64,000 nt of DNA from an uncultured Candidatus Saccharibacteria bacterium (GCA_964349485.1 CAYGGE010000002.1:5737-69736); one strand, 5' to 3'. Shown: positions 43,128 to 64,000, counted from the stretch's first letter. Translations and numbers: made by a program. Notes: a model not told the origin generated them from the letters alone.

Positions 43128-43407
43128 GGACAAAGGAGCCTTGCGTCCGGTGGCTGTAGCTACCGGACGAACTCGTTATATATGCAATATATTAGATTCT
43201 AAAGATAGACATATTTCAAAGAAGGTATCGGGGTAATGTCTGTACTCGTATTTTTGGCAGGCCATCGCCGAAATTGTTAGAACTCTTTGTACTAAGAACA
43301 CAGATCTCATAATTCCTGAGTTTGCGATAACTTAAAAGGCGACCCATACGAGGGGCCGCCCTGCCAGCTAACTGCTGGTGCAATATTTGATTATGTTGCG
43401 CCTACGA

Positions 43408-44220
43408 CTAGGCTGCGACGCTCAGTCCCTTCACGCGAGCCGGATCGAGCTTGCTGCCACCTTTGGGGAAGATGGTGGCGTAGCCGAGCATCAGCATGTT
43501 GAAGTGGATGCGGCCGTCACTGATGTTCTGCGGGACGGTGTGTTCGGCATTGACGGTCAGGCGGTTGATATGCCAGAGCTCCCACTCGCCGTTCTCGGGG
43601 TTAATACGAGCCGTCCACTCGCCTTCGATGATGACCTGGCCGTTCTGGATCTCCATGCTTTTGATCGGTCCGCGGTAGGCCACGCCGTCTTCGACAGACT
43701 CCAGATCGCCACCGATCAGATCGGTTCTGGCGAGCACCTGGTCCCAGCGAAGGTGAGCTGGGCCGCGACCCGTAGCGTTGGAGAGCATCAGGATCTCTTC
43801 GGGCGGATCCCAGCGATCCCGCACGCTCATCGTATCCTGAGTTTCCAGATACCGATAGGGGACGTAGACGGTCTTGCCGTGGGGCGGTGCCCAGAGGGTC
43901 ACTTCGGCCTGCTCGTTGTCGGTCGGATGACAGCCGCTGATGACGCCGTAGACCTCCTTGGGCTCGCCGTAGTAGATCCAACTGATCCAGACGATGGTAG
44001 CGGTGGTGCGCTTGGCCTCTTCAGCCTCCCGCTCCGTCCGTTCCCATCCTTCTTTCCAGGTCTGGAACTCGGCTTCCGAAACACGAAGGTGCTCGGGCCG
44101 TTCGTCCTTGATCATCTGGAAGCCCGCGAAGCGGCCTTCCCGACAGGCGGACTTGGCGAGATATTCCCGATCCCGCTTCTGTTCTTTTGCCCACTGGTTC
44201 TTCATCCATCGCTCGTTCAT
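43408..44220 (-). CDS. Hypothetical protein encoded in a ~62% GC segment (likely horizontally acquired)
   Basis: Strong RBS GGAGGAG before ATG. Trp/Glu-rich sequence. The +strand 285-aa ORF over the same span looks like an antisense shadow. A minus-strand hairpin terminator lies at about 43340-43375. Confidence 0.45.
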   Translation of the reverse strand: MNERWMKNQWAKEQKRDREYLAKSACREGRFAGFQMIKDERPEHLRVSEAEFQTWKEGWERTEREAEEAKRTTATIVWISWIYYGEPKEVYGVISGCHPTDNEQAEVTLWAPPHGKTVYVPYRYLETQDTMSVRDRWDPPEEILMLSNATGRGPAHLRWDQVLARTDLIGGDLESVEDGVAYRGPIKSMEIQNGQVIIEGEWTARINPENGEWELWHINRLTVNAEHTVPQNISDGRIHFNMLMLGYATIFPKGGSKLDPARVKGLSVAA

Positions 44221-44427
44221 CGGTCTCCTCCATAGGCCGTCATGGTGACGGCGGTAGCGAACGACTAAAGTATCGAATTAAAGAGCGCCAGAGGATAGAG
44301 GTAGTAATACTGCACCTCGATCGTGACGCAAAAGTATAGCATAAATCATCAGGTTTGTCAACCTGTTAAGAACTAAAAAACAGCGGTTCAGCTGTATCAG
44401 TTGAAATTCATATTTTTATAGAAGTGA

Positions 44428-44967
44428 TTAGCTTAGTAAGCGTTTAATTTCATCATGCTTCTCTGGGTGTTTTTCTAACCAAAGATGAACGCCTCGCTCT
44501 ACGTTTTCAGGGGTTGGAACATAACTAATAACATTCAGATTAGCGGGCTGGTTGATCGGTTCTGGATCGTACTTTCGTTTCAGCTTTAGGATAATTTCAA
44601 TAGCTCTAAGTCTAACAGTCCAGTCTATATCACTAAGATACTCATAGGTCTTAGCGCCATCTTTTTCAATGGCTGTGGCATTGATAGTTTTTGTTGCCAA
44701 TGTAGCGGCCTTTAGTAAGTCAGCTACCCACTTATCAGATAATCCTGATTCTTCTAGCTGATCTGAAAAATCAAGTTTTCTCAAGTTCTCGTGGCCTATC
44801 TGTGCTGCGCTTTCTCGACTAGTCACATCATAAGCTCTAGACGCTGCTTCTGTTGCATTCCTGGTCTCAATGTACTCTTTGACGAAGACATGTTCTTTGA
44901 TCGTTTTTGGAGGACGTGTAGACATGCTATTGTCGGGTCGCCACAGTGTGCTAGAGATCCACGACAT
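44428..44967 (-). CDS. Phage terminase small subunit-like protein
   Basis: HVFVKEYIETRNATEAASRAYDV...IGHENLRK resembles the Terminase_2/P27-type HTH region. Confidence 0.5.
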   Translation of the reverse strand: MSWISSTLWRPDNSMSTRPPKTIKEHVFVKEYIETRNATEAASRAYDVTSRESAAQIGHENLRKLDFSDQLEESGLSDKWVADLLKAATLATKTINATAIEKDGAKTYEYLSDIDWTVRLRAIEIILKLKRKYDPEPINQPANLNVISYVPTPENVERGVHLWLEKHPEKHDEIKRLLS

Positions 44968-45874
44968 TGTTAATAATGAGTGGGGTTATCGTACCAGGAA
45001 GCTGAAGAAAACGGGTGGTAAACCACTCCATCCCTCCATGCTCTACGACATGTTTAAGAACCCGCTTTACTATGGTCAAAACATCCGTCCTGATGGAACG
45101 GTCCACCAATGTGCCCATAAGACCATGGTGACAGAAGAGGAGTTTTGGCGAGCTCAAATCTTACTTGGCCGTAAAGGACGCACCCGTTCTAAAACCCACA
45201 CATTCGCCTACACGGGGTTAATTCAATGTGGGGAGTGTGGATGTGCCGTGACAGCCGAAGAGAAGCATAAGATCAATTTAAACGGTGGTATGCGGCACTA
45301 TATTTACTACCACTGCACGAAAAAGAAGCTCGATCACAAATGTACTCAACCATCATTTGAGCAAAAGGCTCTCGAGCGCCAAGTTGATGCCCAATTGGAG
45401 AGAATGGCGATCTCAGAGAAGTTCAAGGACTGGGCAATTAAATATTTAAAAGAAACCAGCGAAGATCAGATGAGTCAGTACAATCAAATTACCAAAACGC
45501 AGCAAAGCGCTTATGCTGATGTCGAGAAGAAGCTTGGCAAATTGCTTGATCTAAAACTGAACGAGCTCATAACCGACGAAGAGTACAAGACTAGTAAAGA
45601 ACAATTACTAGCCGAACAAGTCGGTATCGAAGAGCAACTAAAGGCAAATAAGTACAGCTCACATAATTGGATCGAACTAGCCGAAAAAACCTTTGATTTT
45701 GCCTGTCACGCCCGTTACTGGTTCCAAAATGGTACCCTTGAAGATAAAAAAATAATCCTTCAAACCATCGGAGGATCGAACCTCTCGCTGAAGGACAAAC
45801 AACTACGATTTGAACCAGATAATATCTTCACTGTGCTGGCAAATCGGGACAAAAATTCGGATTGGCAGGGGTAG
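44870..45874 (+). pseudogene. Large serine recombinase remnant. Recombinase domain, Zn ribbon and coiled coil are present. The N-terminal resolvase catalytic domain is missing.
   Basis: ...GYRTRKLKKTGGKPL..., CGECGC...YYHC zinc ribbon, C-terminal coiled coil. The stop overlaps the tRNA-Trp 3' end. Confidence 0.6.
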
Positions 45875-45936
45875 AAGGAATCGAACCCTCGTATCAGGTT
45901 TTGGAGACCTGCGTTCTACCATTGAACTATACCCCT
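45863..45936 (-). tRNA. tRNA-Trp (anticodon CCA), CCA encoded
   Basis: Reverse complement AGGGGTA...TACCCCT-G-CCA. Anticodon loop CTCCAAA. Confidence 0.75.
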
Positions 45937-45938
45937 GT

Positions 45939-46001
45939 GCTAGCTATCTGGTAGCTAGTTGTCTGGTTTTTATACCTAACTAGACAACTAGATTACTAGA
46001 C
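45939..46001 (+). repeat. Copy of the CTAG-containing intergenic motif with inverted repeat CTAGTTGTC...GACAACTAG
   Basis: Read directly from the sequence. It lies between tRNA-Trp and rpmG. Confidence 0.4.
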
Positions 46002-46003
46002 AT

Positions 46004-46171
46004 CTATTTAACTTCTTTATGTGCAGTGGTTTTCATGCATTGTGGGCAGTATTTTTTGAGTTGCATGCGATCCGTACCAGAGTTGATCTTATTCTTACTG
46101 GTTCGATAATTAGCCCGACCACATTCTGGGCAGGATAACGAAAACTCGAAGCGGTTACCTTTTTTAGCCAT
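46004..46171 (-). CDS. rpmG: Ribosomal protein bL33
   Basis: MAKKGNRFEFSLSCPECGRANYRTSKNKIN...KKYCPQCMKTTAHKEVK. Not in the ORF track because it is under 60 aa. Confidence 0.8.
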   Translation of the reverse strand: MAKKGNRFEFSLSCPECGRANYRTSKNKINSGTDRMQLKKYCPQCMKTTAHKEVK

Positions 46172-46257
46172 ATGAACTCCTAGAGATAATAACGCATATT
46201 ACTTAATAGATTATGTGGGGCTATGGTACTTCTCGTCGCATAGCTCCTCGAAGCAAG

Positions 46258-46333
46258 TGGAGCCACCTGTCGGATTTGAACCGACGACCCGCTGTTTACA
46301 AAACAGCCGCTCTGGCCACTGAGCTAAGGTGGC
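46258..46333 (-). tRNA. tRNA-Thr (anticodon TGT), CCA encoded
   Basis: Reverse complement GCCACCT...AGGTGGC-T-CCA. Anticodon loop TTTGTAA. Confidence 0.75.
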
Positions 46334-46334
46334 A

Positions 46335-46409
<75 letters not shown>

Positions 46410-46477
46410 ATTTTTGCAAATGAAGCAAGAAAGTATCAAACATCTCACAGGGGTAGCTTCTCACCAATTCGCCGATA

Positions 46478-46563
46478 TGGTGCCGGGTGAAGGATTCGAA
46501 CCTCCGTAGCCCGAAGGCGTCAGATTTACAGTCTGATGTAATTGGCCACTCTACCAACCCGGC
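46478..46563 (-). tRNA. tRNA-Tyr (anticodon GTA), class II with long variable arm, CCA encoded
   Basis: Anticodon stem-loop TCAGA-CTGTAAA-TCTGA. Variable arm CGCCTTCGGGCTACG. Confidence 0.75.
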
Positions 46564-46631
46564 ACACCAAATAAGCCTGAATCACCTGACAAATGTACCA
46601 TATTGTTTGACTTTTGCCAAGGGACGATGAG

Positions 46632-51526: not shown

Positions 51527-51595
51527 CTAAAATCTGATATAGAAGATTTATTACATCTTATGTTCTAAGTGTTTGGGGGCTTTGAAGAGGAAATC

Positions 51596-52549
51596 ATGGA
51601 TTATGTTCGTCCATTTTCAAAACTCGCTAGCCGTGATGTAACTATTGCGGGCGGTAAGGGTGCTTCACTTGGTGAAATGACTGGCCGAGGCATCTCTGTC
51701 CCTCCAGGCTTTGTGATATTAACCACGGCTTTCGAGCAATTTATTGATTCTGCTGAACTCCACAATGAGATTGAATCTCAATTGGCGAAAGTCAACCATC
51801 ATGAGATGGAGACTATCGAGCGAGCTTCCGAGCATATACGAAATCTCATCATGACGGCCGTCATGCCTGAAGCTATTAAGAAAACTATTCTTCATGATTA
51901 CCACGAGCTTGACGCGCCATTCGTGGCCGTTCGCTCATCAGCTACAGCGGAGGATGGAGCTAATGCCTCATGGGCGGGGGAGCTTGATAGTTTTCTTAAC
52001 ACGACGAAGGAGACTTTGTTAGAAAATGTTATGCGTTGCTGGGCTTCACTCTTTACCCCTCGGGCTATTTTTTACCGGATTGAAAAGGGCTTTCAGTCGA
52101 GCAAAGTTTCTGTGGCCGTCGTTGTGCAACAAATGGTCGAGTCTGAGGTTTCTGGTATCGCCTTTTCGGTCCATCCCGTGACCGAAGACCAAAACCAGCT
52201 TATTATTGAAGCTGCCTGGGGCTTAGGCGAGGCAATAGTATCAGGATCGATTACACCCGATAATTATGTTATTGATAAGCGGGACTGGTCGATCATCGAT
52301 TGCTATAAAGCGGATCAAGAGCGAGAGATCGTGCGAAAACCGGCCGGCGGCAATGAATGGGTCGTGGTCTCAGAAACTAAACGATCGATCCAGAAACTTT
52401 CAGATGCTAAGTTGATTGAATTAGCGATGCTTGTTGTTAAAATTGAGCAACATTACGGCTTCCCCTGCGATATTGAATGGGCGATGGTCAAAGAGAGGCT
52501 TTACGTCCTTCAGTGTCGTCCAATTACTACTCTTAAAGAGCCAAAATGA
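51596..52549 (+). CDS. PEP/pyruvate-binding (PPDK_N-type ATP-grasp) domain protein
   Basis: VTIAGGKGASLGEMTGRGISVPPGFVI... The start is taken at MDYV with RBS GAGGAAATC. Confidence 0.65.
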   Translation: MDYVRPFSKLASRDVTIAGGKGASLGEMTGRGISVPPGFVILTTAFEQFIDSAELHNEIESQLAKVNHHEMETIERASEHIRNLIMTAVMPEAIKKTILHDYHELDAPFVAVRSSATAEDGANASWAGELDSFLNTTKETLLENVMRCWASLFTPRAIFYRIEKGFQSSKVSVAVVVQQMVESEVSGIAFSVHPVTEDQNQLIIEAAWGLGEAIVSGSITPDNYVIDKRDWSIIDCYKADQEREIVRKPAGGNEWVVVSETKRSIQKLSDAKLIELAMLVVKIEQHYGFPCDIEWAMVKERLYVLQCRPITTLKEPK

Positions 52550-52559
52550 TATATAAAAT

Positions 52560-53987
52560 ATGAATATTGATGTCTTCAAAAATGCTTTAGCCGAAGATCG
52601 CTTCAAGCAGAAGGGAAGCGTGACGCCTCTCTACTTATTGGGGGCGGGTATGAGTGGATTTAACATCAAGCCGATCCTTGGATATGGATATACCGATTTT
52701 CTTTATATCTATAAGGAAAGTTACGGTGAAATGCATTACTTAATACGCGACTTTAATGATATGTGGCAGATAATCAAAGCGAAACTGGCTCACAATCCTC
52801 ATTACTTAGCTCAGGTTCGTCGTGATTATCAAGATCGATTAGTCGAGCATGAGGATCTATACCACATGATAGATAAGACCGATCTAAGTGCTTTGAACGA
52901 TACTGAATTGCTGAAAGTATTACGACAAACAAACACCTTATATATTAATAATGCTTGTGGTACCGCTCATATTTGTGAGGCTGTCAGCCACAATGCTGAG
53001 GCGGAGCTCATTGCACACCTCCCAAAAAGCCTTACCGATAATGACAATTTTGCCGAATTATTCGCGACTCTGACAGCGCCAACCGAACAATCATTTTTGA
53101 GTCGTGAGGAAGATGAGCTGGCCCGCATTGCCACACTAAATGAATCCGAGCTAGCCTCGGCCCTTGAGAAACATCAGAAACGCTACCACTGGGTCAATAA
53201 TAGTTATGCTGGTGATAAGTACCTGTCAATAGATGATTTTAGAGGTAGATTAGGTCATGCCGAAGCACTATCTCTTAGGAAGGATATGAATGCAGAAAAA
53301 AACGCGCTGTTTTTACGTTATCAGCTCAATGAATCAGCGCGAATGACGATTCATTTGATCGATTTTACTGCGAGCTGGCAAGATGAACGGAAAGGCAATA
53401 TTCTTAAAACGATTCATTATCTTGATCGACTTTTGCTGGAACTGGCTCGCCGTACAAAAATTGACATTCGTTATTTACGCTATCTTTTCCCAAGCGAGCT
53501 TGAAAAAGCACGTGTATTGGCCGATATTGAAGGGAAGCATAGCCAAATAAGAGTCAGATACGAAGGTGTTGCGATCTATACAGATGAAAAGCGATTAATC
53601 ACTGCGACTAGGGAAGATTACTCTCATATCGTCAATTTGATTAAAGGCCTTGCTCCTGATGCTGACGGAGTAGTCAGGGGTTTAGTCGCCCGAAAAGGTA
53701 TGATTAGTGGTAGGGTAGCTATCGTTCACGATGTCACTGAACTAGACAAAGTTAAAAATGGCGACATTATCGTTGCCTCTATGACCCGACCGGAGTATAT
53801 GCCAGCCTTACGAAAAGCGGCGGCCATTGTGACTGATGAAGGTGGAATTACCTGTCATGCGGCGATTGTTGCAAGAGAGTTAGGGGTACCATGTATTATC
53901 GGTACTAAGCATGCCACCACTGCTTTGAAAGACGATGATTTTGTAGTGGTCGATGCGAACAAAGGTGTCGTCTCAATACTTTATTGA
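52560..53987 (+). CDS. Protein with a C-terminal PEP-utilising-enzyme mobile (swivel His) domain. Likely the partner of the preceding ORF.
   Basis: C-terminal GMISGRVAIV...TDEGGITCHAAIVARELGVPCIIG. Confidence 0.65.
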   Translation: MNIDVFKNALAEDRFKQKGSVTPLYLLGAGMSGFNIKPILGYGYTDFLYIYKESYGEMHYLIRDFNDMWQIIKAKLAHNPHYLAQVRRDYQDRLVEHEDLYHMIDKTDLSALNDTELLKVLRQTNTLYINNACGTAHICEAVSHNAEAELIAHLPKSLTDNDNFAELFATLTAPTEQSFLSREEDELARIATLNESELASALEKHQKRYHWVNNSYAGDKYLSIDDFRGRLGHAEALSLRKDMNAEKNALFLRYQLNESARMTIHLIDFTASWQDERKGNILKTIHYLDRLLLELARRTKIDIRYLRYLFPSELEKARVLADIEGKHSQIRVRYEGVAIYTDEKRLITATREDYSHIVNLIKGLAPDADGVVRGLVARKGMISGRVAIVHDVTELDKVKNGDIIVASMTRPEYMPALRKAAAIVTDEGGITCHAAIVARELGVPCIIGTKHATTALKDDDFVVVDANKGVVSILY

Positions 53988-54061
53988 ATCCCAATCTGGT
54001 CCATTATTCGGTATACTATAATTTGATTCAAAGTAATTTCCAGTAAGACATTCTATCTTCC

Positions 54062-54090
54062 TTGACGCCCTATAGGGCGGTTGGTATTAT
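54062..54090 (+). promoter_or_regulatory. Sigma70 promoter TTGACG-N17-TATTAT with a 12-bp palindrome GCCCTATAGGGC in the spacer
   Basis: Read directly from the sequence. Confidence 0.5.
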
Positions 54091-54130
54091 GGATGTACAA
54101 GGTTAAATCTGTTCTTGAGGAGGGGATTAG

Positions 54131-57100
54131 GTGAAGCTTCGTTTTTCTGGATATGCTCACTATTTCGTTGCAGCCTGTTTTGTGGTGGGCTTAGTATTGA
54201 GCCAAGGATCAAATCCAACTCGAGCCTACGCCGCTCCTCCATGTAATGGTGCGGCTGGTTTGCGTTATACTGAGATTGCGACCGATAATGCCCACGATCA
54301 GCAAGATACCACCTTGTACAAAAATCTACCTAATGGTCGTAATCCAGGTGCTGATCCCTTTCTTGCAGTGACTGCTTCAGGTGGCCAACAGTCCAGAGCG
54401 GTGATTGGGTTTGACTTGTCAGCGTTACCGGCCGATATTATCGTTCACTACGCACAGCTAGTACTTGGGAGTCCCTTGGGAAGCTCACGAGTTTTCTTTT
54501 CTGGCAGCCGAGGGGTCAGCGCTTATCGATTAACTCAACCTAATTGGTCAGAGATTAAGGCGAACTGGAATCGTTACAATACATTTCTGTTTGGTAATCT
54601 GGCTTGGAACAGTGCAGGTGGGGACTTCGACTCAAGTGATCGACGTGCGATTAATGGGGTCGAGTATGCCTGTTACCCTGAGGTCATCGAGAAGGATGTC
54701 GCGACCGTCACTGACTGGGTCGCTAGTACACTAAACGGTACTAAGCAGCTTGACTTACTGTTAAAACAACCAGGAGTGACTGGTGTCTATCAGTTTAAGA
54801 GTTCCGAGGCTAGCGGGTCACAAGGCTACGGTGATCGGCCGGCTCTTGGTGTGGTTTACTCACATATTATTTCTGGCTACGTTTTTAACGATAGCAATGC
54901 CAATGGTGTCCGGGAAAATGGCGAAGTTGGTGTCAGTGATATCCCTATTCAACTAAAAGTTAGTAATACAAGTGCGGTTGCAGGGGCGACTGCTAGCGAA
55001 ATGGGGGACCCTGGTCACTACCGTTTTTTTAAAGAACTGACTGGTTCAACAGCTAATGAATATCTTGACGGTACAAAGCAATACAAGGTTGAAGCACTCA
55101 TAAGCGGTAGGCAGCGGACTGACAGTCCGTGGGTACCAACTACCGATTCGCCTAATACAACTCCCTTCGCTAACCCTCGCCGTGACTTGGGAGTCGCCTA
55201 CTCACCTATTCAATTTTGTGTAAAAGATGCCACTACAGGTGCTCCGATTGCTGGAGCCGATGTGACAGTTCCCTGGACGATTATCCGCGGCGGCAGTTCA
55301 GGGCAAGATGGGCATCTCATTACTGATTCTGAAGGTAAAACTGATCTCAGTAAGATCGATTATACACTAGTGCCAGTTGGCTATACCGGTTTTGCTAGAG
55401 TGAAAGTAAACGGATATCAGTTGGGTGCCATGACCTGGTCGAGAATACTCGGTGACTCAGCTCCTAAATGTCTTCCACTTAAGCCATTGCCAAAGTTTTG
55501 TGTTGTTGGGCAAACTGATTCAGCCGATGCTGTGCCGATTGTTGGAGCTCATGTTGAACCAAACCCACCGTCAAACGATATGATTCGAACCGATCTTTCC
55601 TCTCCTGATAATCGTGGCTACTTGATTACTGGCAATGATGGTCGGACAAACCCGACATTTCTCGAACCTGACCGTATGTCAGCCAATAGCACGGCGAGAG
55701 CCAAAATTACGGCCAATGGATTTGTAACTAAGGAAGAGCAATGGACATTCAATGGTGATGCTTTGCAACCGGCCTGTTTTGTATTGACAAGATCAGATTC
55801 GGCTCCACTACCGACCGTCCAATTTAAAATTAACGACAGCGTAACTGGATCTGGAGTGGCTGGGGCAAGGATCAGCGGTAATTACATCCTCGGTAATCCA
55901 CCCAATCCTGACACACCAAAGCTAGTCACGGGTAGCGATGGAAAGACTGATACGAGCCATGTGAACATTCCATTTCTTCAATCGGTGGGCAAAGGGGGGA
56001 GCATGGGTGCTACCATCACTCACCCAGCATATATCGATAAATCTACAACCTGGATTTACGATGCTATCTTAGGCCAATTGGTGCCAATTACGTTTGTTCC
56101 AGCTAAATTGCAGTTTTGTGCCCGGGATATCCAAGCTATTACAACAAAAATTGCGGGTGTCAAAATTGAACTACCGACTGCAGGGGTCATACGCTCTAAT
56201 CCTCCGAATCCTGACGCCCCAAACCTAATTACGAAAGCAGATGGTTGCACCGATTCTACGTATCTTGATTACAATACACTCAATAATTTGGTGAGTCAGA
56301 ATCAGAACTTAACCGGAACTAAAACGGGCTATGAATCCAAGACAATAGTTTGGCAATATCTAAAACAAGCTAACCAAGTTGTCAATATCGATTTAACTCG
56401 ATTCACTCCACCGTCGGCTGACTTGTCGATTACGAAGACTTTTACCGATGGTTCAAGAGTTAAGACTTTGATGCAGGGCGAGACTGGTACCTATCGTTTG
56501 ATCGCTAAAAATACCAGTACGACAGTGGTGGCGACAGATGTATTGATTCGAGATATCCAGTCTGACGATCACCCCACGACTGATGCTCACCGCGTTGCCT
56601 GGTTGCCAAACACTGCCGAAAGTACAAGTAATCCACATCAACTTGATTGGACGCGAACCGATCTCCAGCCTGAGCAGACAGTCACACATGAACCTGAGTT
56701 TATAGTTCGCTGTAATGCCCCACTGACTAGTCCGACAAGCCCATTACGTAACTTAGCCCTGGTCACCGCCACGACCACCGATCCGAGTCCAGCCAACAAC
56801 ACCGATAACGATCTCAGACTGTTTATTGTTCCTGGTGATGCCCGCCTATCACTAGCTGTGACGTCGACACCATCGGTTGTTCAGTCAGGCAATTCTTTCG
56901 TGCTCAGCTCACAGTTGACCAATAATAGTCTCACCACGGACGCTCGACATGTGACATTGTCAACCATTTTGCCAAGCCAACTGAGACCGCAAGCTGGTTC
57001 GACAACCGGCGGAGGAATTATTGCTGGACAGAAAATTAGTTGGGTCATCGATCGATTGGCGAAAGGTACTACCTCTACCTATTCGGTGTCGGCCACTGTT

Positions 57101-58447
57101 AATCAAAATGTCTCGGCTCAGATCGTCAATCTCAATGTCTCTGCTGTTTCACTGGCCGCCGACCCAGCCGGTAGTTGTGGGACGGCCTCGGCAGTCAGTT
57201 CGATTCGAATCAATGGCCCTCTCTCGACCATCAGTAAAAAAACTTCGACAGCCGACGTTGAAAAAGGTGAGGAGTTTATCTACTACGTTCGCCTGAATAA
57301 CCAAGGCAACAGTGATTTGTCGGCGACGGCCACCTTAACTGATCAGCTTGATCCTCGCCTAGAGTTTGTTCGACAAGATAGTTGTAAGGTCATCGACGTC
57401 ACCGCTGAAGATGTCGCGCTTGGCTCATTGTGTGGTGCCGATCAATCGCCAAATCCAACTGTCTCTGGCCAAACATTGAGTTGGAGCGTGAGCCGGGTGA
57501 CTGCCAACACGGCGATAGTATATCCAGTTGTGGTTAAGGTTCGTAGTACAGCTACAGCAATCAGCTGTCCTGACCTGATCAACAACGACTTAATCATAGA
57601 TCAGGGTGGTGTGACAGCTAGAGTTAGTTCAGGGGTAAATTTCTACGCGGCCCAATGTCTTGAGGGTAATCTCTACGCCAGAAATGCCAATGCACGCGGT
57701 GGGGTAAACGAAGGAATAAAGATTACGGGTAGCGACGTGATTATCGCCCCGCAATCAGTTCTCGCCTCAACTCAGAGCATAGTCTGTACCTCTCCAAAAT
57801 GCGCCAATGTCCCTTGGAAGATCGCCAATTATGAGGAAGCCACGTCGGTAGGGTTGAACTTTACTGACGTCAAGAAGCGGATGGAGCGCAATAGTTTACG
57901 GGTTTCATCAGGTCAAACCACCTTGAAGTCCAATAATTTGAGTGGCGGCTTCAACTTTTACACGGGGACGAACGATGATAGCTATCGGGCAAAGGCCCAA
58001 TTCCCTGAAGGACGGGTATGGTACACCGGCGGTGACCTGACGATCGACACGGGCGTTACAGGACGAGACTTTGTCTTTACCGGCAAAGGGACAATCATTG
58101 TCGGTGGCAATCTATACGTCACTGGTCAAGGAAAACTCAAATATAAGAGCGAATCGTTTCTTAGTCCAGGCAATTCAGTATCTGACGCGGTTGGATTCAT
58201 ATTGGCTAATGGCAATGTGTCTGTTGGTGCGGATGTCCGTCAAATCGTTGGTGCATACTATGCGCCTAATGGCAATATTAACTTCGACGGACCAGGGACG
58301 GGCCAGCTAAGACCTGCCAATGGTATCTTTATTGGGAGTTCGATCAATGTCGATCGCAATAAAGTAGTCTTTCGCTACAATAATCGGCTGAACAGTTCTG
58401 CTGGTGCGCCACCTGGCTTCTCGTTCGCCAGTTCGCCTGGTAAGTAA
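54131..58447 (+). CDS. Giant (1438 aa) secreted repeat protein, DUF11-like conserved repeat domains. Putative adhesin or pilus-associated surface protein.
   Basis: GTG start with RBS GGAGGGG. Signal peptide. Repeated about 70-aa modules (..NPPNPD.P.L.T..DG.TD...). DUF11-like LSITKTF.. repeats. Confidence 0.75.
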   Translation: MKLRFSGYAHYFVAACFVVGLVLSQGSNPTRAYAAPPCNGAAGLRYTEIATDNAHDQQDTTLYKNLPNGRNPGADPFLAVTASGGQQSRAVIGFDLSALPADIIVHYAQLVLGSPLGSSRVFFSGSRGVSAYRLTQPNWSEIKANWNRYNTFLFGNLAWNSAGGDFDSSDRRAINGVEYACYPEVIEKDVATVTDWVASTLNGTKQLDLLLKQPGVTGVYQFKSSEASGSQGYGDRPALGVVYSHIISGYVFNDSNANGVRENGEVGVSDIPIQLKVSNTSAVAGATASEMGDPGHYRFFKELTGSTANEYLDGTKQYKVEALISGRQRTDSPWVPTTDSPNTTPFANPRRDLGVAYSPIQFCVKDATTGAPIAGADVTVPWTIIRGGSSGQDGHLITDSEGKTDLSKIDYTLVPVGYTGFARVKVNGYQLGAMTWSRILGDSAPKCLPLKPLPKFCVVGQTDSADAVPIVGAHVEPNPPSNDMIRTDLSSPDNRGYLITGNDGRTNPTFLEPDRMSANSTARAKITANGFVTKEEQWTFNGDALQPACFVLTRSDSAPLPTVQFKINDSVTGSGVAGARISGNYILGNPPNPDTPKLVTGSDGKTDTSHVNIPFLQSVGKGGSMGATITHPAYIDKSTTWIYDAILGQLVPITFVPAKLQFCARDIQAITTKIAGVKIELPTAGVIRSNPPNPDAPNLITKADGCTDSTYLDYNTLNNLVSQNQNLTGTKTGYESKTIVWQYLKQANQVVNIDLTRFTPPSADLSITKTFTDGSRVKTLMQGETGTYRLIAKNTSTTVVATDVLIRDIQSDDHPTTDAHRVAWLPNTAESTSNPHQLDWTRTDLQPEQTVTHEPEFIVRCNAPLTSPTSPLRNLALVTATTTDPSPANNTDNDLRLFIVPGDARLSLAVTSTPSVVQSGNSFVLSSQLTNNSLTTDARHVTLSTILPSQLRPQAGSTTGGGIIAGQKISWVIDRLAKGTTSTYSVSATVNQNVSAQIVNLNVSAVSLAADPAGSCGTASAVSSIRINGPLSTISKKTSTADVEKGEEFIYYVRLNNQGNSDLSATATLTDQLDPRLEFVRQDSCKVIDVTAEDVALGSLCGADQSPNPTVSGQTLSWSVSRVTANTAIVYPVVVKVRSTATAISCPDLINNDLIIDQGGVTARVSSGVNFYAAQCLEGNLYARNANARGGVNEGIKITGSDVIIAPQSVLASTQSIVCTSPKCANVPWKIANYEEATSVGLNFTDVKKRMERNSLRVSSGQTTLKSNNLSGGFNFYTGTNDDSYRAKAQFPEGRVWYTGGDLTIDTGVTGRDFVFTGKGTIIVGGNLYVTGQGKLKYKSESFLSPGNSVSDAVGFILANGNVSVGADVRQIVGAYYAPNGNINFDGPGTGQLRPANGIFIGSSINVDRNKVVFRYNNRLNSSAGAPPGFSFASSPGK

Positions 58448-58458
58448 TCTAACTGTCT

Positions 58459-59139
58459 ATGAAGGGAATTGTCATGGATAATCCAATACCGGCCGGGCCG
58501 TCCGATGCTGTCTTCCCTCCACGGGAGGCAAGTCAGCAAGCAAGAAGCATTGCACCAATTACCGCCATTACTCGACCGTACGATGTTATCTTTGCAGTAT
58601 TGGCTGCCCTACTAGTCTTACTTGGTATCTTTATTCTCTATTCCGGTACTGTTTCAACCAATGCCCGGATTAGACGGGCTGAGAGTTCAATTGCTGAGGT
58701 AACAGCGATTATTAATCGAGAGCCCCTAGCTGGTGTAGGTCGTCAAGCCGATCAGTTGGTAGCAGTAGTTGACGGCTACGATAAGGTGATCACCGCACAG
58801 CATGATTTCACACGGTTGCTTGATGATATTGCTGTTCGTGTTCCATCAGAAGTGAAAATGCTATCCATGTCGGCTGATTCAAAAGGTCAGTTCCGATCAA
58901 CTTTACGCGCCAAAAGTTTTATCGCCGCCGGGAAAGCGATTCTCGGCTTACGCCAGGCCAAACATTTAAAAACCGTGACACTTGAGACTATCAGTTTCGA
59001 CCCAAAAACGAGCGCTGATATAGACTTTTCAATTCTAGCGACAGTTGAACTTTCAATGTTGCAAGGTACGGAAGGTACAACATTTGATCAAACATTAAAA
59101 CCGAACCTTTTTGCACCTGATAATATTAAAAGTCAGTGA
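58459..59139 (+). CDS. PilN-like type IV pilus assembly protein (single TM)
   Basis: TM YDVIFAVLAALLVLLGIFIL. Its position in the T4P locus. Confidence 0.45.
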   Translation: MKGIVMDNPIPAGPSDAVFPPREASQQARSIAPITAITRPYDVIFAVLAALLVLLGIFILYSGTVSTNARIRRAESSIAEVTAIINREPLAGVGRQADQLVAVVDGYDKVITAQHDFTRLLDDIAVRVPSEVKMLSMSADSKGQFRSTLRAKSFIAAGKAILGLRQAKHLKTVTLETISFDPKTSADIDFSILATVELSMLQGTEGTTFDQTLKPNLFAPDNIKSQ

Positions 59140-59145
59140 GGAAAT

Positions 59146-59715
59146 ATGAATAGTTACGCCCTACACATTAAACCTTCAGTAATCATTATCGTTAGCTGTT
59201 TATTGTGGGTAATAGCCGGGACTTACTTCTTCGGTTTGCCATTGTCGCGTGAACTGGCAGCGCGAACTGCAGTTCTAGCTCAAAAAGAACGCCAATCAGA
59301 GCGACTAACTAAGCGACAAAAAGCACTTACATCACTGCAAACCAAGCTAGGTAACTACGATGCCCTACTTCAACGACTGTCAATTGCCTATCCGAGTGAT
59401 GAGCAGGTAGTTGAAGCGATGGTACAGATTCAGTCGATGACAGTCCAGGCTGGGCTCAATATCATCGAGCTTAAACCGACACGGGCGCAGGCAGGTGGCT
59501 TACCGGTTAATTTAACCACATCGGGTAACTATGCTAATACGATCGTGTTTCTAAACCAATTGAAGCACAACATTCGTCCAGTAAGAGTTGACGCCTTTTC
59601 TTTGGCTAAAGCAACCGATGGTAGTGAAAATATAATTGCCACCTATCAACTAAGTCTTGGATTTGCTTCAGTAAGTCAAGTAGTAACTTCTCCTTCAACC
59701 AAGGAGAGTCCATGA
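59146..59715 (+). CDS. PilO-like type IV pilus assembly protein
   Basis: N-terminal TM, coiled coil and a C-terminal periplasmic domain. Locus context. Confidence 0.45.
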   Translation: MNSYALHIKPSVIIIVSCLLWVIAGTYFFGLPLSRELAARTAVLAQKERQSERLTKRQKALTSLQTKLGNYDALLQRLSIAYPSDEQVVEAMVQIQSMTVQAGLNIIELKPTRAQAGGLPVNLTTSGNYANTIVFLNQLKHNIRPVRVDAFSLAKATDGSENIIATYQLSLGFASVSQVVTSPSTKESP

Positions 59716-59960
59716 AAATGACCCCAACTGCCATCTTTGGTCTCATTGCTTGTCTAAGCATTGTCTTGATCTATGGTTGGTTAATTCGTGGCGGCTTGCG
59801 AAAGCCAGCAATTAATTATACTCCGACAAATGAACCTGCAGTCACCGCAGACTCGATCTTAACCGATCAATTCTTTGCTAAGTTACAACTACGTAATACC
59901 AATGGACCATTACCGATTACCGTTACCAAAGAGGAGCTGGGAACAACTAATCCTTTTTAG
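59712..59960 (+). CDS. Small TM protein in the pilus locus
   Basis: Overlapping start. One TM. Confidence 0.35.
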   Translation: MKMTPTAIFGLIACLSIVLIYGWLIRGGLRKPAINYTPTNEPAVTADSILTDQFFAKLQLRNTNGPLPITVTKEELGTTNPF

Positions 59961-59965
59961 AGCCT

Positions 59966-62227
59966 ATGAATGCATCAGTTTCAGACTCACCACTACTTGC
60001 TGAACTGCTTAAATCTGGTCGTCTTACGCCAGAGGTTATTTCGAACATCCCAGATGCGGTCAAACAAGCTGATCTTGAGACATATCTGATCGCCGAAAAA
60101 TTAGTCACCGATGCTGAGATTGTTGAGGCATACGCCGCCCTTTATCACTTACCGTTCGTCCGTTTAAGTACTCGCGTTATTGACCCAACAGTGCTACGCC
60201 TAATCCCAGAACTGATAGCTAGACGTTATGATGTTGTCGCTTATCAGAAGGAAGGTGATATTGTCCATGTTGCCCTATCTGCTCCAAAGCGTATGGTTCA
60301 AACAGGGAACGTCGGCCTCTTAAAACGGTTGCAACAAGAACTCAACCTACGTATCGCTCCGGCATTTGCTCCACTATCTGAAATTCGTCAGGCTTTCGCT
60401 GGCTATAATGCACGAGAAGACGAAAAAGATTCCAACTCAGGCGCAAGCCAGGCTTCCAAGAGCGAATCAGTTAATCTAGCAGTCCAAGTCATTCCTAAGG
60501 AAGTTTCATTTGATGGACTGTCGATAGTCCCCGACGTCTTGGCCACTTTTCCCTACGAAGTCGCCAAGCGTTACCAAGTAGTGCCCTTTGCGAAGCCGAA
60601 GATAGGTGCCCTATCAGTAGCAGCGCGCAATCCTGACGATCCTACACTACGAGAATTACTACAGTTTGTGCAGAGTCGAAATGCACTAGCAATTACAGTC
60701 TATCCGGTTAACGAAGCCAATTTTGCCCTAGCACTATCTCAGTATCAAGTAAAATCTGCCGCTGCCCCTAGTGTTGGTGATATTGGAGCTCCACAGCAAG
60801 GAACTATTCAGCCAGTCGATGACCTGCCCGTCGCGACTAGGACTGAGCAGATCATTCCAGAGATAAAATCAGAAGAGGTTTCGACCCTTTCGACAGCCCC
60901 GAAAGCCTTTGATCCAGAACGCTATCATTCATCTTTACCATCAGAAAATCTCATTATCACCAATCAAAATACCGAGAATATTCTTGAGAGCTACTTTGCC
61001 AAAGAGCCTCGTCAAGTTAATGACGTCATCGAAATTGTTCAATCGGGCAATATCCCTCGAGTAGTTGCAGGGTCGATCGCCTATGCAATTATCTTGCGTG
61101 CTTCAGACATTCATATTGAAGCGGCCAAGGAAAAAGTCCGTTTGCGCTATCGGATCGATGGTGAACTGACCGATATCCTCTACCTACCTCGGGTCATGTT
61201 AGCCCCGCTTGTTTCTCGAGTAAAAATCTTGGCCCAAATGAAGATCGATGAAAATAGAGTGCCACAGGATGGTCGTTTTAATGTCAGTTTCCACGGACGG
61301 GAGATCGATATTCGAGTCTCCACTTTACCAACAATCCACGGCGAAAAAGTGGTGATGAGAATTCTAGATCGAGCGGCTGGAGTGATGACACTTGCCGATA
61401 TGGGACTTGACGGAACGAACCTTAAACGAGTCGAATCGAGCATGAACAAAGCCTACGGCATGTTGCTGGCAACCGGACCGACTGGTTCCGGTAAGACAAC
61501 TACCCTTTATGCGATCATGCAACAGATCTCCAAACCTGAAGTCAATGTCGTCACGATAGAAGATCCAGTGGAGTATGAGTTGCCAGGGATCAACCAAACT
61601 CAAATCAAACCAAAGATCGGGTTCAATTTTGCCGATGGGCTCCGAAGTATCTTACGCCAAGACCCGAACGTGATTATGGTCGGCGAGATTCGGGATAAGG
61701 AGACTGCTGAGATGGCGACTCAAGCCGCTCTCACCGGTCACCTAGTACTCTCGACTTTGCATACTAACAACTCTAGTGGAGCCATGCCACGCTTAGTCGA
61801 TATGGGAATCGAGCCTTTCCTAATTACATCTTCAGTCAATGCGGTCATCGGTCAACGTTTAGTACGCCGTATTTGTCCCGATTGTAAGCAAGTGGCAAAG
61901 TTGCCCGAAGCAGTCTTGACGAAAATTGCCAACGAGCTGGCAATCGCCAATGTTGCGTCAGAGCTTAAGGATCAAACCAAATGGCAGATTGTTGCCGCCA
62001 AAGGCTGTGCTAAATGTCACAGCGGTTATCGTGGTCGAATCGGACTGTTTGAGATATTAACTCTAAGTGAAACAATCGAATCACTTGTTGTCAAAGGCGA
62101 ATCAGCTTCGGTTATCGAATCGGCTGCAGTCAAAGAGGGGATGATTACCTTAAAGCAAGATGGTCTGGCTAAGGTTGTCACTGGCTTAACCACGCTTGAG
62201 GAAGTCTTGAAAGCGACTGAGGAGTAG
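59966..62227 (+). CDS. pilB: Type IV pilus assembly ATPase PilB (GspE family) with tandem N-terminal T2SSE_N domains
   Basis: GPTGSGKTTTLYA, Asp box, His box and a tetracysteine motif CPDC...CAKC. Confidence 0.85.
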   Translation: MNASVSDSPLLAELLKSGRLTPEVISNIPDAVKQADLETYLIAEKLVTDAEIVEAYAALYHLPFVRLSTRVIDPTVLRLIPELIARRYDVVAYQKEGDIVHVALSAPKRMVQTGNVGLLKRLQQELNLRIAPAFAPLSEIRQAFAGYNAREDEKDSNSGASQASKSESVNLAVQVIPKEVSFDGLSIVPDVLATFPYEVAKRYQVVPFAKPKIGALSVAARNPDDPTLRELLQFVQSRNALAITVYPVNEANFALALSQYQVKSAAAPSVGDIGAPQQGTIQPVDDLPVATRTEQIIPEIKSEEVSTLSTAPKAFDPERYHSSLPSENLIITNQNTENILESYFAKEPRQVNDVIEIVQSGNIPRVVAGSIAYAIILRASDIHIEAAKEKVRLRYRIDGELTDILYLPRVMLAPLVSRVKILAQMKIDENRVPQDGRFNVSFHGREIDIRVSTLPTIHGEKVVMRILDRAAGVMTLADMGLDGTNLKRVESSMNKAYGMLLATGPTGSGKTTTLYAIMQQISKPEVNVVTIEDPVEYELPGINQTQIKPKIGFNFADGLRSILRQDPNVIMVGEIRDKETAEMATQAALTGHLVLSTLHTNNSSGAMPRLVDMGIEPFLITSSVNAVIGQRLVRRICPDCKQVAKLPEAVLTKIANELAIANVASELKDQTKWQIVAAKGCAKCHSGYRGRIGLFEILTLSETIESLVVKGESASVIESAAVKEGMITLKQDGLAKVVTGLTTLEEVLKATEE

Positions 62228-62320
62228 TGGTGTTTGTAACACTTCGGATGATAAACAATGCTATACTATAGTTCATAGTACCGAAAAACCTGCTGATTAG
62301 TACCTGTTTAAGGAGGAGTG

Positions 62321-63418
62321 ATGGCTGACAGCCAACCGTCTGCACAAGTCGCGATTAGCACTGCGTCGACCCGCATGAAGAAACTACTCGATGAGGCGAT
62401 TGCGAAGAAAGCTAGTGATCTACATGTGGCTGTTGGTGTGCCACCCATCTTGAGGGTAGACGGGAAACTTGCAGCGGTTAGCGGGCAGGATCCGCTTACG
62501 CCTGTCGAAACCCGAAAACTGGCGGAAAGTCTCATGACTGAGGCCCAGCTTGAACGGCTCCTTGAGCAACGCGATATTGATTTCTCATTCGGTTATCAGA
62601 CAATGCGTTTTCGAGCTAATATATTCTTTGAACGGGGGAGCATCGGGGTGAGTCTACGTCTTATCCCCAAGGAGCTTCAATCTATAGGTGACCTAAAATT
62701 ACCGAGCTTTCTGGAGAAATTTACCTTACCGACTCAGGGTTTGGTACTGATTACCGGTCCAACCGGTCACGGTAAGACCACTACCGTCTCTGCCCTGATC
62801 AAGCATATTAACGATACGCGACGAGAGCATATTATTACGATTGAAGATCCAATCGAGTACATCTTTGAGCACAAGAAGAGTGTTATTCAGCAACGAGAAG
62901 TTGGTAGTGATGCCACAAGTTTTGCGAGTGCACTTCGAGCCGCCTTGAGAGAAGATCCGAACATTGTTGTCTTGGGCGAGATGCGTGACCTGGAGACAAT
63001 TGAAGCGGCTTTAACCGTTGCTGAGACCGGTCATCTGGTGTTCGCTACGTTGCACACAAATAACGCCGCTCAAACCGCTGACCGTATCATCGATGTTTTC
63101 CCGCCTCACCAACAGACCCAGATACGTAGTCAACTGGCCAATGTTCTCCTAGGAATTGTGTCTCAGCGGTTGCTACCAAGAGTCGCGGGCGGCCGGATCG
63201 TGGCGGCTGAAATAATGATTGCCAATGCCGCAGTTCGTAACTTAATTCGTGAGGGTAAGGCCCATCAGCTCAATAACATCATCCAGACTTCAGCGGCTGA
63301 AGGAATGATCGGTCTCGATAAGATCCTGGCTGAGTTAGTGACCAAGGGTGAAGTGACGATTGACGACGCTTTAACCTGGGCGAACGATCCAAAGCAGTTC
63401 AAATCAATGGTGTATTGA
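62321..63418 (+). CDS. pilT: Twitching motility ATPase PilT
   Basis: GPTGHGKTTT. LREDPNIVVLGEMRD. RBS AGGAGGAG. Confidence 0.9.
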   Translation: MADSQPSAQVAISTASTRMKKLLDEAIAKKASDLHVAVGVPPILRVDGKLAAVSGQDPLTPVETRKLAESLMTEAQLERLLEQRDIDFSFGYQTMRFRANIFFERGSIGVSLRLIPKELQSIGDLKLPSFLEKFTLPTQGLVLITGPTGHGKTTTVSALIKHINDTRREHIITIEDPIEYIFEHKKSVIQQREVGSDATSFASALRAALREDPNIVVLGEMRDLETIEAALTVAETGHLVFATLHTNNAAQTADRIIDVFPPHQQTQIRSQLANVLLGIVSQRLLPRVAGGRIVAAEIMIANAAVRNLIREGKAHQLNNIIQTSAAEGMIGLDKILAELVTKGEVTIDDALTWANDPKQFKSMVY

Positions 63419-63532
63419 ACACAATCTTAAAGCCAAATTACAGATGTTAATTTTAAAACTCAATTATAAAAATATTGAAACAGAAATCTGACAAATATTT
63501 TATAATTTGACGACGGAATACGGATTTAGCTC

Positions 63533-64000
63533 ATGACAATGCCCATCATCAACTACGTTTCAATCCGCGATAAGGCATTTCTGTCACGCCAGTTAGCGAC
63601 CATGATGAGTAGTGGTATTCCACTAGCCCAGTCGATCAACGTGCTGGTGGCTGAGACAGACAATCCTCTGATTCGGGGGACACTCAGTCAGATTGTTCAT
63701 GATCTCGAAGGGGGACTGTCTTTTTCATCGGCGATTGAGAAGCATGCCTATCTCTTTAACAGTACTTATGTTGCCGCGACACAGGCTGGTGAGGCCAGCG
63801 GTAAGCTTGAAGATGTCTTGCTTGATTTGGCGCTCCATATCGAGCGAGAGAGCGCCGTTGTCAGTAAGATAAAGAGTGCGATGATCTACCCGGTCTTTAT
63901 TATCCTGGCTATGTTGGCCGTCATTACGCTCATGATGATTCGCGTTTTGCCTCAACTCAAAGTCATCTTCAATGAGAGCGGAGTTGAGTTACCGGTAGCT
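63533..64000 (+). CDS. pilC: Type IV pilus platform protein PilC (GspF family). N-terminal part; it continues beyond the window.
   Basis: MTMPIINYVSIRDKAFLSRQLATMMSSGIPLAQSI... GspF repeat. Confidence 0.75.
   Translation, partial: MTMPIINYVSIRDKAFLSRQLATMMSSGIPLAQSINVLVAETDNPLIRGTLSQIVHDLEGGLSFSSAIEKHAYLFNSTYVAATQAGEASGKLEDVLLDLALHIERESAVVSKIKSAMIYPVFIILAMLAVITLMMIRVLPQLKVIFNESGVELPVA

Follow-up and report, generated by a model that had tools for sequence, protein, structure and literature searches.

The window (the whole stretch of 64,000 nucleotides analysed here) contains towards its end the operon of a Patescibacteria (CPR) type IV pilus (T4P). The first gene of this operon is a big gene encoding a predicted secreted, fibrillar adhesin-like protein of 1438 aa (P0001; 54131..58447, GTG start), an identical copy of which occurs on four other public contigs. 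All genes and protein features described below are located on the plus strand. The big gene is preceded by a ribosome-binding site recognized from the sequence (GAGGAGGGG, 54117..54125, 5 nt 5' of the GTG start) and followed by pilN (58459..59139; 226 aa, one TM helix), which has no match in Pfam and is identified by the PilN profile of its relatives (E = 2e-33), by pilO (59146..59715; 189 aa; Pfam PF04350, 31.7 bits vs a cut-off of 22), and by a gene for an 82-aa single-TM protein (59712..59960). The latter is conserved in the operon: related loci harbor an equivalent small gene, and its Southlakia counterpart, SEML1_0107, is scored essential. Further downstream are the genes for the extension ATPase PilB (59966..62227; 753 aa; Pfam T2SSE, E = 1.9e-127, plus MshEN), the retraction ATPase PilT (62318..63418; 366 aa; Pfam T2SSE) and the N-terminal part of the platform protein PilC (63533..64000), which runs off the window and whose T2SSF domain is found on contigs L002/L003. 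Other public contigs carry two pilins, pilD and minor pilins past the end of the window. The intergenic gaps from the big gene to pilB are 11, 6, -4 and 5 nt, with a single consensus-like promoter upstream. The succession of pilN/O-like genes, pilB, pilT and pilC directly after the big gene (58459 to 64000) is as described in the first-pass annotation, and so is the absence of pilM, which tblastn detects neither in the window nor on contigs reaching 10 kb further.

The predicted promoter (54062..54090) is sigma-70-like and consists of TTGACG (54062-54067) and TATTAT (54085-54090), separated by a 17-nt spacer and with an extended -10 element (TG-n-TATTAT), matching the consensus at 10 of 12 positions. 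This score is shared only with a site at 59437 as the highest among the promoter-like sites between 53500 and 60200, which number 12 vs 8.8 +/- 2.8 in shuffles and hence are not in excess. The same promoter is kept in locus L085, the closest relative (TTGACG-17-TATGAT, at 9932-9960), in line with the earlier claim that the big gene has a promoter of its own. The perfect 12-bp palindrome previously noted in the spacer (GCCCTATAGGGC) is present at 54067-54078, and its symmetry in fact reaches 14 bp (CGCCCTATAGGGCG, 54066..54079, unstranded); it is a candidate operator or weak hairpin. The palindrome alone is statistically unremarkable, since, apart from being a single exact copy in the window, it has 2 matches with up to two mismatches vs 1.45 expected. 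The corresponding dyad of L085, CGCTC-AATA-GAGCG, maintains the 5-bp arms via a compensatory C>T / G>A change, which, as one comparison only, gives weak support to an operator or hairpin.

The N-terminus of P0001, MKLRFSGYAHYFVAACFVVGLVLSQGSNPTRAYA followed by APP, comprises a basic n-region, a hydrophobic core and an AYA cleavage site, and reads as a Sec-type signal peptide (aa 1-34, 54131..54232, predicted cleavage AYA/A). The 1438-aa protein with signal peptide reported before is thus borne out by the open reading frame and its N-terminus. A prepilin leader was considered and rejected, as the N-terminus has no G/F-x-x-x-E motif; homologues of P0001 also have Sec-type N-termini with AxA sites and no prepilin leaders. 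At the C-terminal end (...APPGFSFASSPGK) neither a TM segment nor a sortase motif (LPXTG) is present, and Pfam and NCBIfam detect no known anchor domain (OmpA-like etc.) and no peptidoglycan- or S-layer-binding domain in the protein.

The layout of P0001 is that of a fibrillar adhesin: a signal peptide, a putative carbohydrate-binding head and an Ig-like stalk, followed by a C-terminal domain of ~285 aa. The head (aa 58-230, 54302..54820) is DNRLRE/CBM96-like; it scores above the cut-off for NCBIfam NF033679 (DNRLRE; 44.4 bits, cut-off 34) and slightly under it for Pfam CBM96 (24.5 bits, cut-off 26), whose founding member binds alginate (PMC9971899). The stalk begins with an SdrD_B (CnaB-like) domain (aa 248-342, 54872..55156; Pfam PF17210, 35.1 bits vs a cut-off of 29.7). 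Then follow four tandem prealbumin/CarboxypepD_reg-like modules (aa 352-756, 55184..56398) with the repeat motif NPPNPD...TG.DG.TD and a weak Pfam match to CarboxypepD_reg. The repeats are genuine (26-33% pairwise identity; z = 6.2-17.9 for local alignments over shuffles), but they measure ~101 aa rather than the ~70 aa stated earlier, with the (I/V)T..(D/E)G.T(D/N) motif at aa 397, 499, 599 and 700. NPPNPD, described as conserved, is exact in modules 3 and 4 only, reads NPPSND in module 2 and is absent from module 1. Modules of this ~101-aa type are found only in P0001 (4 copies) and P0002 (3 copies). The stalk ends with three DUF11/CLIPPER (CnaA-like) domains (aa ~775-1150, 56453..57580; Pfam PF01345, E = 1.7e-15, with TIGR01451 matching at aa 1036-1082). 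Among the domains proposed for a search, DUF11 is therefore recovered as predicted (57.7 bits vs a cut-off of 24.6, in three stretches), whereas PilY1 (PF05567) has no Pfam match at E <= 1 and a vWA domain is likewise absent from P0001 by Pfam, though present in some relatives.

The feature that links P0001 to pili, missed in the first-pass annotation, is the C-terminal domain (aa 1154-1438, 57590..58444), whose predicted fold is a triangular beta-solenoid. Near its end is a PPGF motif, nearly invariant in the family (aa 1427-1430, 58409..58420), and behind it a short tail of low confidence (pLDDT 47). An exhaustive search of 1.84 billion proteins yields 67 cluster representatives of this domain, always at the C-terminus; judged by these matches it is an undescribed, rare protein family. 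The only sequence family that recognizes the domain is DUF7305 (PF23981), to which P0001 scores 21.8 bits with the full protein and 23.3 bits with the domain alone (cut-off 27). DUF7305 matches 6 of 36 family members, and as such relatives reach E = 2.2e-9, P0001 can be placed by transitivity as a probable divergent member. A full-text search for the DUF7305 family name gave no paper. The N-terminal domains of the 36 members vary: DUF11 occurs in 19, VWA/VWA_2 in 6 and SdrD_B in 5, besides Laminin_G_3, NHL, cadherin, Big_9, FG-GAP and CBM96, so that the family appears as a conserved tail with exchanged heads. Short members of ~380-400 aa (P0022, P0048, P0064, P0067) have scarcely more than signal peptide and solenoid, which suggests an independent function of the solenoid.

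For the analysis of synteny, homologues were picked solely by their likeness to the C-terminal domain. All 10 informative look-ups place the homologue directly upstream of pilN-pilO-small-pilB-pilT-pilC-pilins-pilD, and the metagenome locus L095/L096 shows the same arrangement, with the homologue upstream of pilN-pilO-pilB. Co-occurrence with pilus genes in relatives, set beforehand as a check on the proposed pilus association, is consequently found in 11 of 12 informative loci overall. The remaining locus, L097/L098, encodes the only sampled member without the PPGF segment and does not adjoin pilus genes. Sampling by PilB gives a similar picture: such a gene is present at each of the 7 Patescibacteria loci where pilN/O precede pilB and the upstream sequence is long enough, and none is found at ~60 non-Patescibacteria pilB loci. 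The operon position is held across deeply diverged relatives, in proteins down to ~30% identity and with differing non-pilus genes at the flanks, often with gaps of 3-11 nt to pilN/pilO. The family thus seems to occur almost only at the head of the pilus operon, with one copy per locus (no second copy is present in the 64 kb window). The comparison with L085 illustrates the exchange of heads: PilT is 90% and PilB 69% identical, and the big proteins align over aa 472-1437 of P0001 only (45%), the first ~470 aa, head included, being unrelated. The T4P1 locus of the model Saccharibacterium Southlakia is not headed by such a gene, and hence a pilus of this type can function in its absence.

Several known systems resemble P0001 in part. 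With PilY1/PilC, the tip adhesins of Gram-negative type IVa pili, it shares a large Sec-signal non-pilin protein encoded among pilus genes and a variable N-terminal adhesive region (vWA in PilY1) joined to a conserved C-terminal domain, which in PilY1 docks on minor pilins. In contrast to these proteins, P0001 has a predicted C-terminal beta-solenoid in place of the PilY1 beta-propeller, a DNRLRE/CBM96-like head instead of vWA and a long Ig-like stalk, and its gene is upstream of pilN/O and not in a minor-pilin operon. Membership in the PilY1 family was rejected on the grounds of the missing PF05567 match and the predicted solenoid. ComZ of Thermus thermophilus and cyanobacterial PilX likewise have a triangular beta-solenoid as in ice-binding proteins; these are tip minor pilins of the pilin fold, whose solenoid interrupts the fold ahead of the last beta-strand. 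P0001, however, has no pilin domain or class III signal, and its predicted solenoid forms the C-terminus of a fibrillar adhesin; N_methyl matches are recorded only for separate pilin genes downstream. Profile searches with A1 and A3 against PDB sequences did not retrieve ComZ (6qvi) at E <= 10, and ComZ family membership was rejected for lack of both a pilin domain and a sequence match. Fibrillar adhesins such as SdrD-like MSCRAMMs and Acinetobacter B9T28_05395 share signal peptide, head, SdrD_B/DUF11 stalk and C-terminal anchoring domain (PMC12617251); they differ in that P0001 has no LPXTG, OmpA-like or other known anchor, and carries the pilus-operon-specific solenoid instead. The predicted solenoid also matches the fold of ice-binding proteins (DUF3494, IBP-1 fold; FfIBP, ColAFP, SfIBP_1) at 13-17% identity. 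DUF3494 is absent from P0001 in Pfam scans at E <= 1, and the likeness concerns the fold only. Nothing in the genomic context points to ice binding.

The explanation we favor, with a probability of roughly 0.55, is that P0001 is a Sec-exported fibrillar adhesin dedicated to its T4P and analogous to PilY1. DUF11/CLIPPER domains usually make up the stalk that connects the adhesive head of a fibrillar adhesin to the anchoring domain at its C-terminus (PMC12617251). Accordingly arranged, the head would touch a surface or host-cell glycan, and the stalk of ~900 aa (SdrD_B, four prealbumin-like modules, three DUF11/CLIPPER) would extend it outward. The solenoid with its PPGF tail would serve as anchor to the pilus, most likely at the minor-pilin tip or priming complex, in parallel to the C-terminal domain of PilY1 and the solenoid of ComZ/PilX. 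Through extension by PilB and retraction by PilT, the adhesin could then be displayed and put under tension. The solenoid of ComZ is described as FfIBP-like and tip-located (PMC6561018), and those of cyanobacterial PilX are proposed to act as a tip plug in place of PilY1 (bioRxiv 10.64898/2026.02.12.705559). Epibiotic growth of Saccharibacteria needs T4P, and the host is bound via cell-wall glycans (PMC10633639, PMC11623550); a host or epibiont role of P0001 is conceivable. The synteny and the fibrillar-adhesin layout support the pilus-associated adhesin proposed earlier. The gene with its domains, its conserved operon position and the constant tail with variable heads are shown, and the solenoid fold is predicted; that P0001 is exported, binds glycans, is physically attached to the pilus and is located at its tip is inferred. 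Against this explanation are the lack of a pilin fold and prepilin signal, unlike ComZ/PilX, and of a PilY1 domain; the position of the gene, which adjoins pilN/O outside the minor-pilin cluster; and the occurrence of similar solenoids in proteins unrelated to pili, so that the fold alone does not imply a place at the tip. The Southlakia locus that lacks such a gene, the member at L097/L098 apart from pilus genes and the CBM96 score slightly under the cut-off also count against it.

Other readings fit parts of these data. The pilus machine might act as a monoderm type II secretion system that pushes the folded P0001 through the wall/S-layer; the machine would then recognize its cargo by the C-terminal domain, and P0001, whether set free or kept at the surface, would act as an adhesin or matrix protein. 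A Sec signal and linkage to the operon are as compatible with a cargo as with a pilus component. To our knowledge, however, substrates of type II secretion share no conserved domain for recognition, and the closest pilus-related structural match of the predicted solenoid is a tip protein. A precedent exists in Clostridium perfringens, where secretion of the vWA protein BsaC needs the pilin PilA3 (bioRxiv 10.1101/2024.11.04.621531), and vWA heads are found in 6 of the 36 relatives; yet bsaC is part of its own bsa operon (sipW, bsaA, bsaB), outside the pilus genes, and PilT is encoded in the operon considered here, which is similar to the motility-type T4P-1 locus of Saccharibacteria (PMC11623550). 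We consider this export route unlikely. Similarly unlikely, in our view, is that the solenoid is a part of the machine, a wall/S-layer collar or plug on the PilN/PilO ectodomains that replaces the PilP/PilQ-type components absent from monoderm-like Patescibacteria, with the adhesin modules as lineage-specific extras. The constant position right before pilN/pilO, with its narrow gaps, and the members that are nearly solenoid only would suit such a part, but a buried component would rarely bear long, hypervariable stalks and heads, no peptidoglycan- or S-layer-binding domain is detected, and Southlakia has an essential T4P1 locus that functions with no such gene in this place.

An ordinary surface adhesin that only shares location or regulation with the pilus genes and has no physical or mechanistic link to the pilus would explain why every identifiable N-terminal or stalk domain is a generic adhesin module and why one solenoid-family member (L097/L098) is away from pilus genes. 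It is rendered quite improbable by the identical position at 11 of the 12 independent loci that are informative, with varying non-pilus genes at the flanks, and by the single copy per locus, as an anchor of general use on the wall should have several paralogues in differing surroundings. The poorest prospects we assign to a ComZ-like DNA receptor, in which the solenoid would serve DNA uptake (nucleotide scavenging or competence) instead of or besides adhesion: the likeness to ComZ comes without the pilin domain, and the DNA-binding lysines of ComZ are located between pilin and solenoid domains; the heads of the family are of lectin, vWA or CBM types; and T4P essentiality in Southlakia is independent of comEC (PMC10633639).

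A further, tentative possibility is a 'split ComZ/PilX' in PilY1-less Patescibacteria. Here a non-pilin, Sec-exported solenoid tip plug would attach in trans to a minor pilin via the PPGF tail, e.g. by beta-strand complementation, taking the place of the final strand in the pilin fold. The stalks and heads on the plug (CBM, vWA, lectin, cadherin), which differ by lineage, would set the target of attachment, be it a host cell or a surface. If this holds true, the family would be a host-range determinant of environmental CPR pili. For the pilus component by which these ultrasmall Patescibacteria may recognize a host or surface, P0001 is a good candidate.

The window consists of ordinary Patescibacteria (CPR) chromosomal DNA (GC 43-51%) with tRNAs, aminoacyl-tRNA synthetases, penicillin-binding proteins and RecJ, and the nearest PilB proteins in species-representative genomes belong to Saccharibacteria and Patescibacteria MAGs (45-53% identity). 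The large gene at 54131-58447 (+ strand) has a GTG start with the ribosome-binding site GAGGAGGGG 5 nt before it, and encodes 1438 aa. The protein comprises a Sec-type signal peptide (cleavage between AYA and A predicted from the sequence), a DNRLRE domain (aa 58-230; above the NCBIfam cut-off, with Pfam CBM96, a family founded on an alginate-binding module (PMC9971899), just below), an SdrD_B domain (aa 248-342), four tandem modules of ~101 aa each (aa 352-756), three DUF11 domains (aa ~775-1150), and a C-terminal region of ~285 aa with only a sub-threshold match to DUF7305. The repeats reported in the first-pass annotation are real, but their period is ~101 aa in four copies rather than 70 aa (pairwise identity 26-33%; z = 6-18 over shuffles); the DUF11-like repeats noticed there correspond to the three DUF11 domains. 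The ~101-aa module type was seen only in this protein and, three times, in its nearest homologue. DUF11, since renamed CLIPPER, is typically the stalk domain of fibrillar adhesins (PMC12617251); the protein therefore has the canonical layout of such an adhesin, except for a C-terminal module that matches no known anchor.

This C-terminal module is tied to type IV pilus (T4P) genes. A tblastn search of 80 pilB loci with the entire protein as query matched its last ~130 residues only; the matches, in four Patescibacteria loci, all lie a few kb upstream of pilB. ORF maps give a common order of large secreted protein, (pilM), pilN, pilO, a protein of 80-118 aa, pilB, pilT and pilC, and profile searches raised the number of such loci to seven (L005, L008, L010, L012, L014, L016, L038). 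The domain profile had no match in ~60 non-Patescibacteria pilB loci or in Patescibacteria pilB loci without upstream pilN/O, and no second copy exists elsewhere in the window. Since this sampling began from pilB, a test free of that bias was made through the C-terminal domain. With the last 285 aa as query, an exhaustive phmmer search over 1.84 billion cluster representatives returned 67 proteins only (E ≤ 1e-3), with the domain C-terminal in every one. Eleven were looked up on their contigs: 10 immediately precede pilN-pilO-(small)-pilB, and the eleventh contig ends too soon to show neighbours and was excluded as uninformative. In two of the 10 pilus-linked loci a small gene of selfish-element type is inserted between the large gene and pilN (23S_rRNA_IVP, L093 2881-3249; GIY-YIG, L094 2971-3234). 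A metagenome scan contributed a further pilus-linked locus (L095/L096) and a single exception (L097/L098), whose domain stops before the PPGF segment near its usual end. The first-pass annotation had staked its proposal on co-occurrence with pilus genes in relatives; linkage holds at 11 of the 12 independent loci that are informative, and in 11/11 members with the PPGF tail. One copy per locus, nearly always adjoining pilus genes, leads us to reject a general Patescibacteria wall-anchor domain.

We note that other searches were less productive. A word-indexed homology search returned only the protein itself for the full sequence and nothing for the C-terminal domain or a 7-sequence alignment, the candidate lists being seemingly swamped; the metagenome scan gave no match with an alignment of the close subfamily and four loci only with a second subgroup. 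The exception (L097 3-1103, L098 677-2722) represents a PPGF-lacking subfamily without the last solenoid turns, whose natural end is near profile position 222, with ...GAYY..G.I.F and a stop; in its one examined locus, genes for RCC1-repeat surface proteins and GAPDH follow, not pilus genes. Many short representatives end likewise (P0026, P0029, P0030, P0032, P0037 and others).

A single-sequence AF2 model of the C-terminus (pLDDT 39.5) was replaced by a model of the C-terminal 295 aa based on a 24-sequence alignment (pLDDT 82.1, pTM 0.78), in which low confidence is limited to the last residues after PPGF. With this model, a predicted triangular beta-solenoid, the best Foldseek match is the ice-binding protein FfIBP; profile searches of PDB sequences gave chance-level matches to phage gp5 needles only. 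An ice-binding function is rejected, as the likeness is confined to the fold. The solenoid of ComZ, a pilus-tip protein of Thermus, has been called FfIBP-like (PMC6561018), and cyanobacterial PilX proteins have the same kind of solenoid, a proposed replacement of the PilY1 tip plug (bioRxiv 10.64898/2026.02.12.705559).

As the first-pass annotation stated, the large gene is directly followed by pilN, pilO, pilB, pilT and pilC. The gaps from the large gene through pilN, pilO and an 82-aa gene to pilB are 11, 6, -4 and 5 nt; pilT and then the first part of pilC are set off by larger gaps. PilN is recognised by a profile of its relatives (E = 2e-33), pilO and pilB are assigned by Pfam, and on longer contigs with an identical large gene two pilins, pilD and minor pilins come next. 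The earlier remark that the window holds no pilM extends, by tblastn, to the longer contigs. The gene is likewise missing from the operon in the relatives L085-L091; L012, L014, L016 and L038 have the same large gene but a gene of 348-366 aa in the pilM position before pilN, and in L015 the ORF in the equivalent place (327 aa) is a Pfam PilM_2 match. No INLLP-type PilM-binding motif is obvious at the N-terminus of PilN in the window. The 82-aa single-TM protein (59712-59960) is kept in related loci at 79-118 aa; its counterpart in the cultured Southlakia, SEML1_0107 (75 aa), is scored essential in published Tn-seq and carries neither name nor family.

The promoter proposed for the large gene, TTGACG-17-TGgTATTAT (54062-54090), lies in the 143-bp gap behind the preceding gene. 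It matches at 10/12 positions, the top score in 53500-60200 together with a site at 59437, and its -35 and -10 elements are conserved in L085, the closest relative; the number of such matches in this interval does not exceed that in shuffles. The palindrome described in its spacer is present and extends to 14 bp (CGCCCTATAGGGCG, CGCCC-TATA-GGGCG, 54066-54079). By chance statistics over the window it is unremarkable, and its hairpin is also picked up as a weak match to a terminator. In its place L085 carries CGCTC-AATA-GAGCG (9936-9949), a compensatory pair that keeps the 5-bp arms; from this one comparison a conserved operator or hairpin may be suspected.

In most relatives the large gene is preceded by one for a protein of 129-220 aa that has a TM helix at its N-terminus and matches nothing in Pfam; the stop of this gene overlaps or adjoins the large gene's start (L086 4566-5213, L087 7976-8632, L088 8516-9004, L089 8600-9004, L090 3950-4339, L091 366-761, L094 81-542); possibly it is another member of the operon that has gone unrecognised. 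In the window and in L085 it is absent, and a PEP-utilizers gene takes its place. At 51569-53987 of the window, the PPDK_N domain (326 aa) and the PEP-utilizers domain protein (475 aa) are encoded by separate genes, 72% and 25% identical, respectively, to their positional counterparts in L085. Farther upstream, a tRNA cluster (Trp, Thr, Thr, Tyr; 45863-46563) adjoins a recombinase-like ORF (Zn_ribbon_recom, 44870-45874), with ORFs without Pfam match at 41764-44967, local GC up to 0.51 at 42-44 kb and a tRNA-Pro at 39034-39109; the region ~39000-46600 may be the remnant of an integrated element. A 754-aa ORF (34678-36942, - strand) has no Pfam match at E ≤ 1e-5, and a class A penicillin-binding protein (28812-31667, - strand) combines transglycosylase and transpeptidase with C-terminal Big_7 and DUF4959 extensions.

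All members of the C-terminal-domain family carry a Sec-type signal peptide. The N-terminal parts of 36 members contain DUF11 (19), VWA/VWA_2 (6) or SdrD_B (5), and rare or single occurrences of Laminin_G_3, NHL, cadherin-like, Big_9, FG-GAP, GBS104-like Ig and CBM96 domains; some members, at ~380-400 aa, extend barely beyond signal peptide and tail. Identity to L085 is 90% for PilT, 69% for PilB, 55% for PilO and 47% for PilN. The large protein aligns over aa 472-1437 only (45%), its first ~470 aa, head included, having no counterpart there.

We favour, with a probability of roughly 0.55, a fibrillar adhesin dedicated to the pilus: the variable head, held out by the Ig-like stalk, would bind a surface or host glycan, and the conserved solenoid, together with its PPGF tail, would join the protein to the pilus, by analogy with PilY1 and ComZ most likely at the minor-pilin tip complex. 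Alternatively, the pilus machine could work as a monoderm type II secretion system with the protein as its cargo, for which C. perfringens BsaC is a precedent; we consider this unlikely, and the same holds for a fixed envelope component bound to PilN/PilO, the products of the adjoining genes. That the adhesin is merely co-located with genes it accompanies in 11 of 12 loci appears less probable still, and a ComZ-like DNA receptor is the most improbable of these readings. The Southlakia pilus locus T4P1 starts with pilM and has nothing like the large gene upstream; therefore the protein is not universally required for such a pilus.

Several known classes do not accommodate the protein. It resembles PilY1 in its Sec signal, variable N-terminus, conserved C-terminus and nearby pilus genes, and has no PilY1 beta-propeller domain; it shares the solenoid fold of ComZ and PilX and, unlike them, has no pilin module, nor any sequence match to them. 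A modular pilin of the S. sanguinis PilB/PilC kind is ruled out by the missing prepilin signal, and a sortase-anchored MSCRAMM by the missing C-terminal LPXTG: the LPNTAE motif is internal, mid-protein, with no TM segment behind. The protein is probably a divergent member of DUF7305, a family without assigned function for whose name full-text search found no paper; nor did the literature searched on Patescibacteria pili yield a description of the C-terminal-domain family.

T4P are essential to the epibiotic life of cultivated Saccharibacteria (PMC10633639), and candidate pilins alone have so far been proposed as their host-recognising molecule (PMC11623550). With a putative anchor domain that is conserved and locked to the operon, and adhesive heads that are rapidly exchanged, the family shows the pattern to be expected of a specificity determinant, and it provides a concrete, recognisable candidate for host recognition in environmental Patescibacteria. 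After Thermus and cyanobacteria, this is a third lineage that ties an ice-binding-type solenoid to T4P without PilY1, here carried by a non-pilin protein, and the Patescibacteria family makes it directly testable how pili that lack PilY1 are capped and armed.
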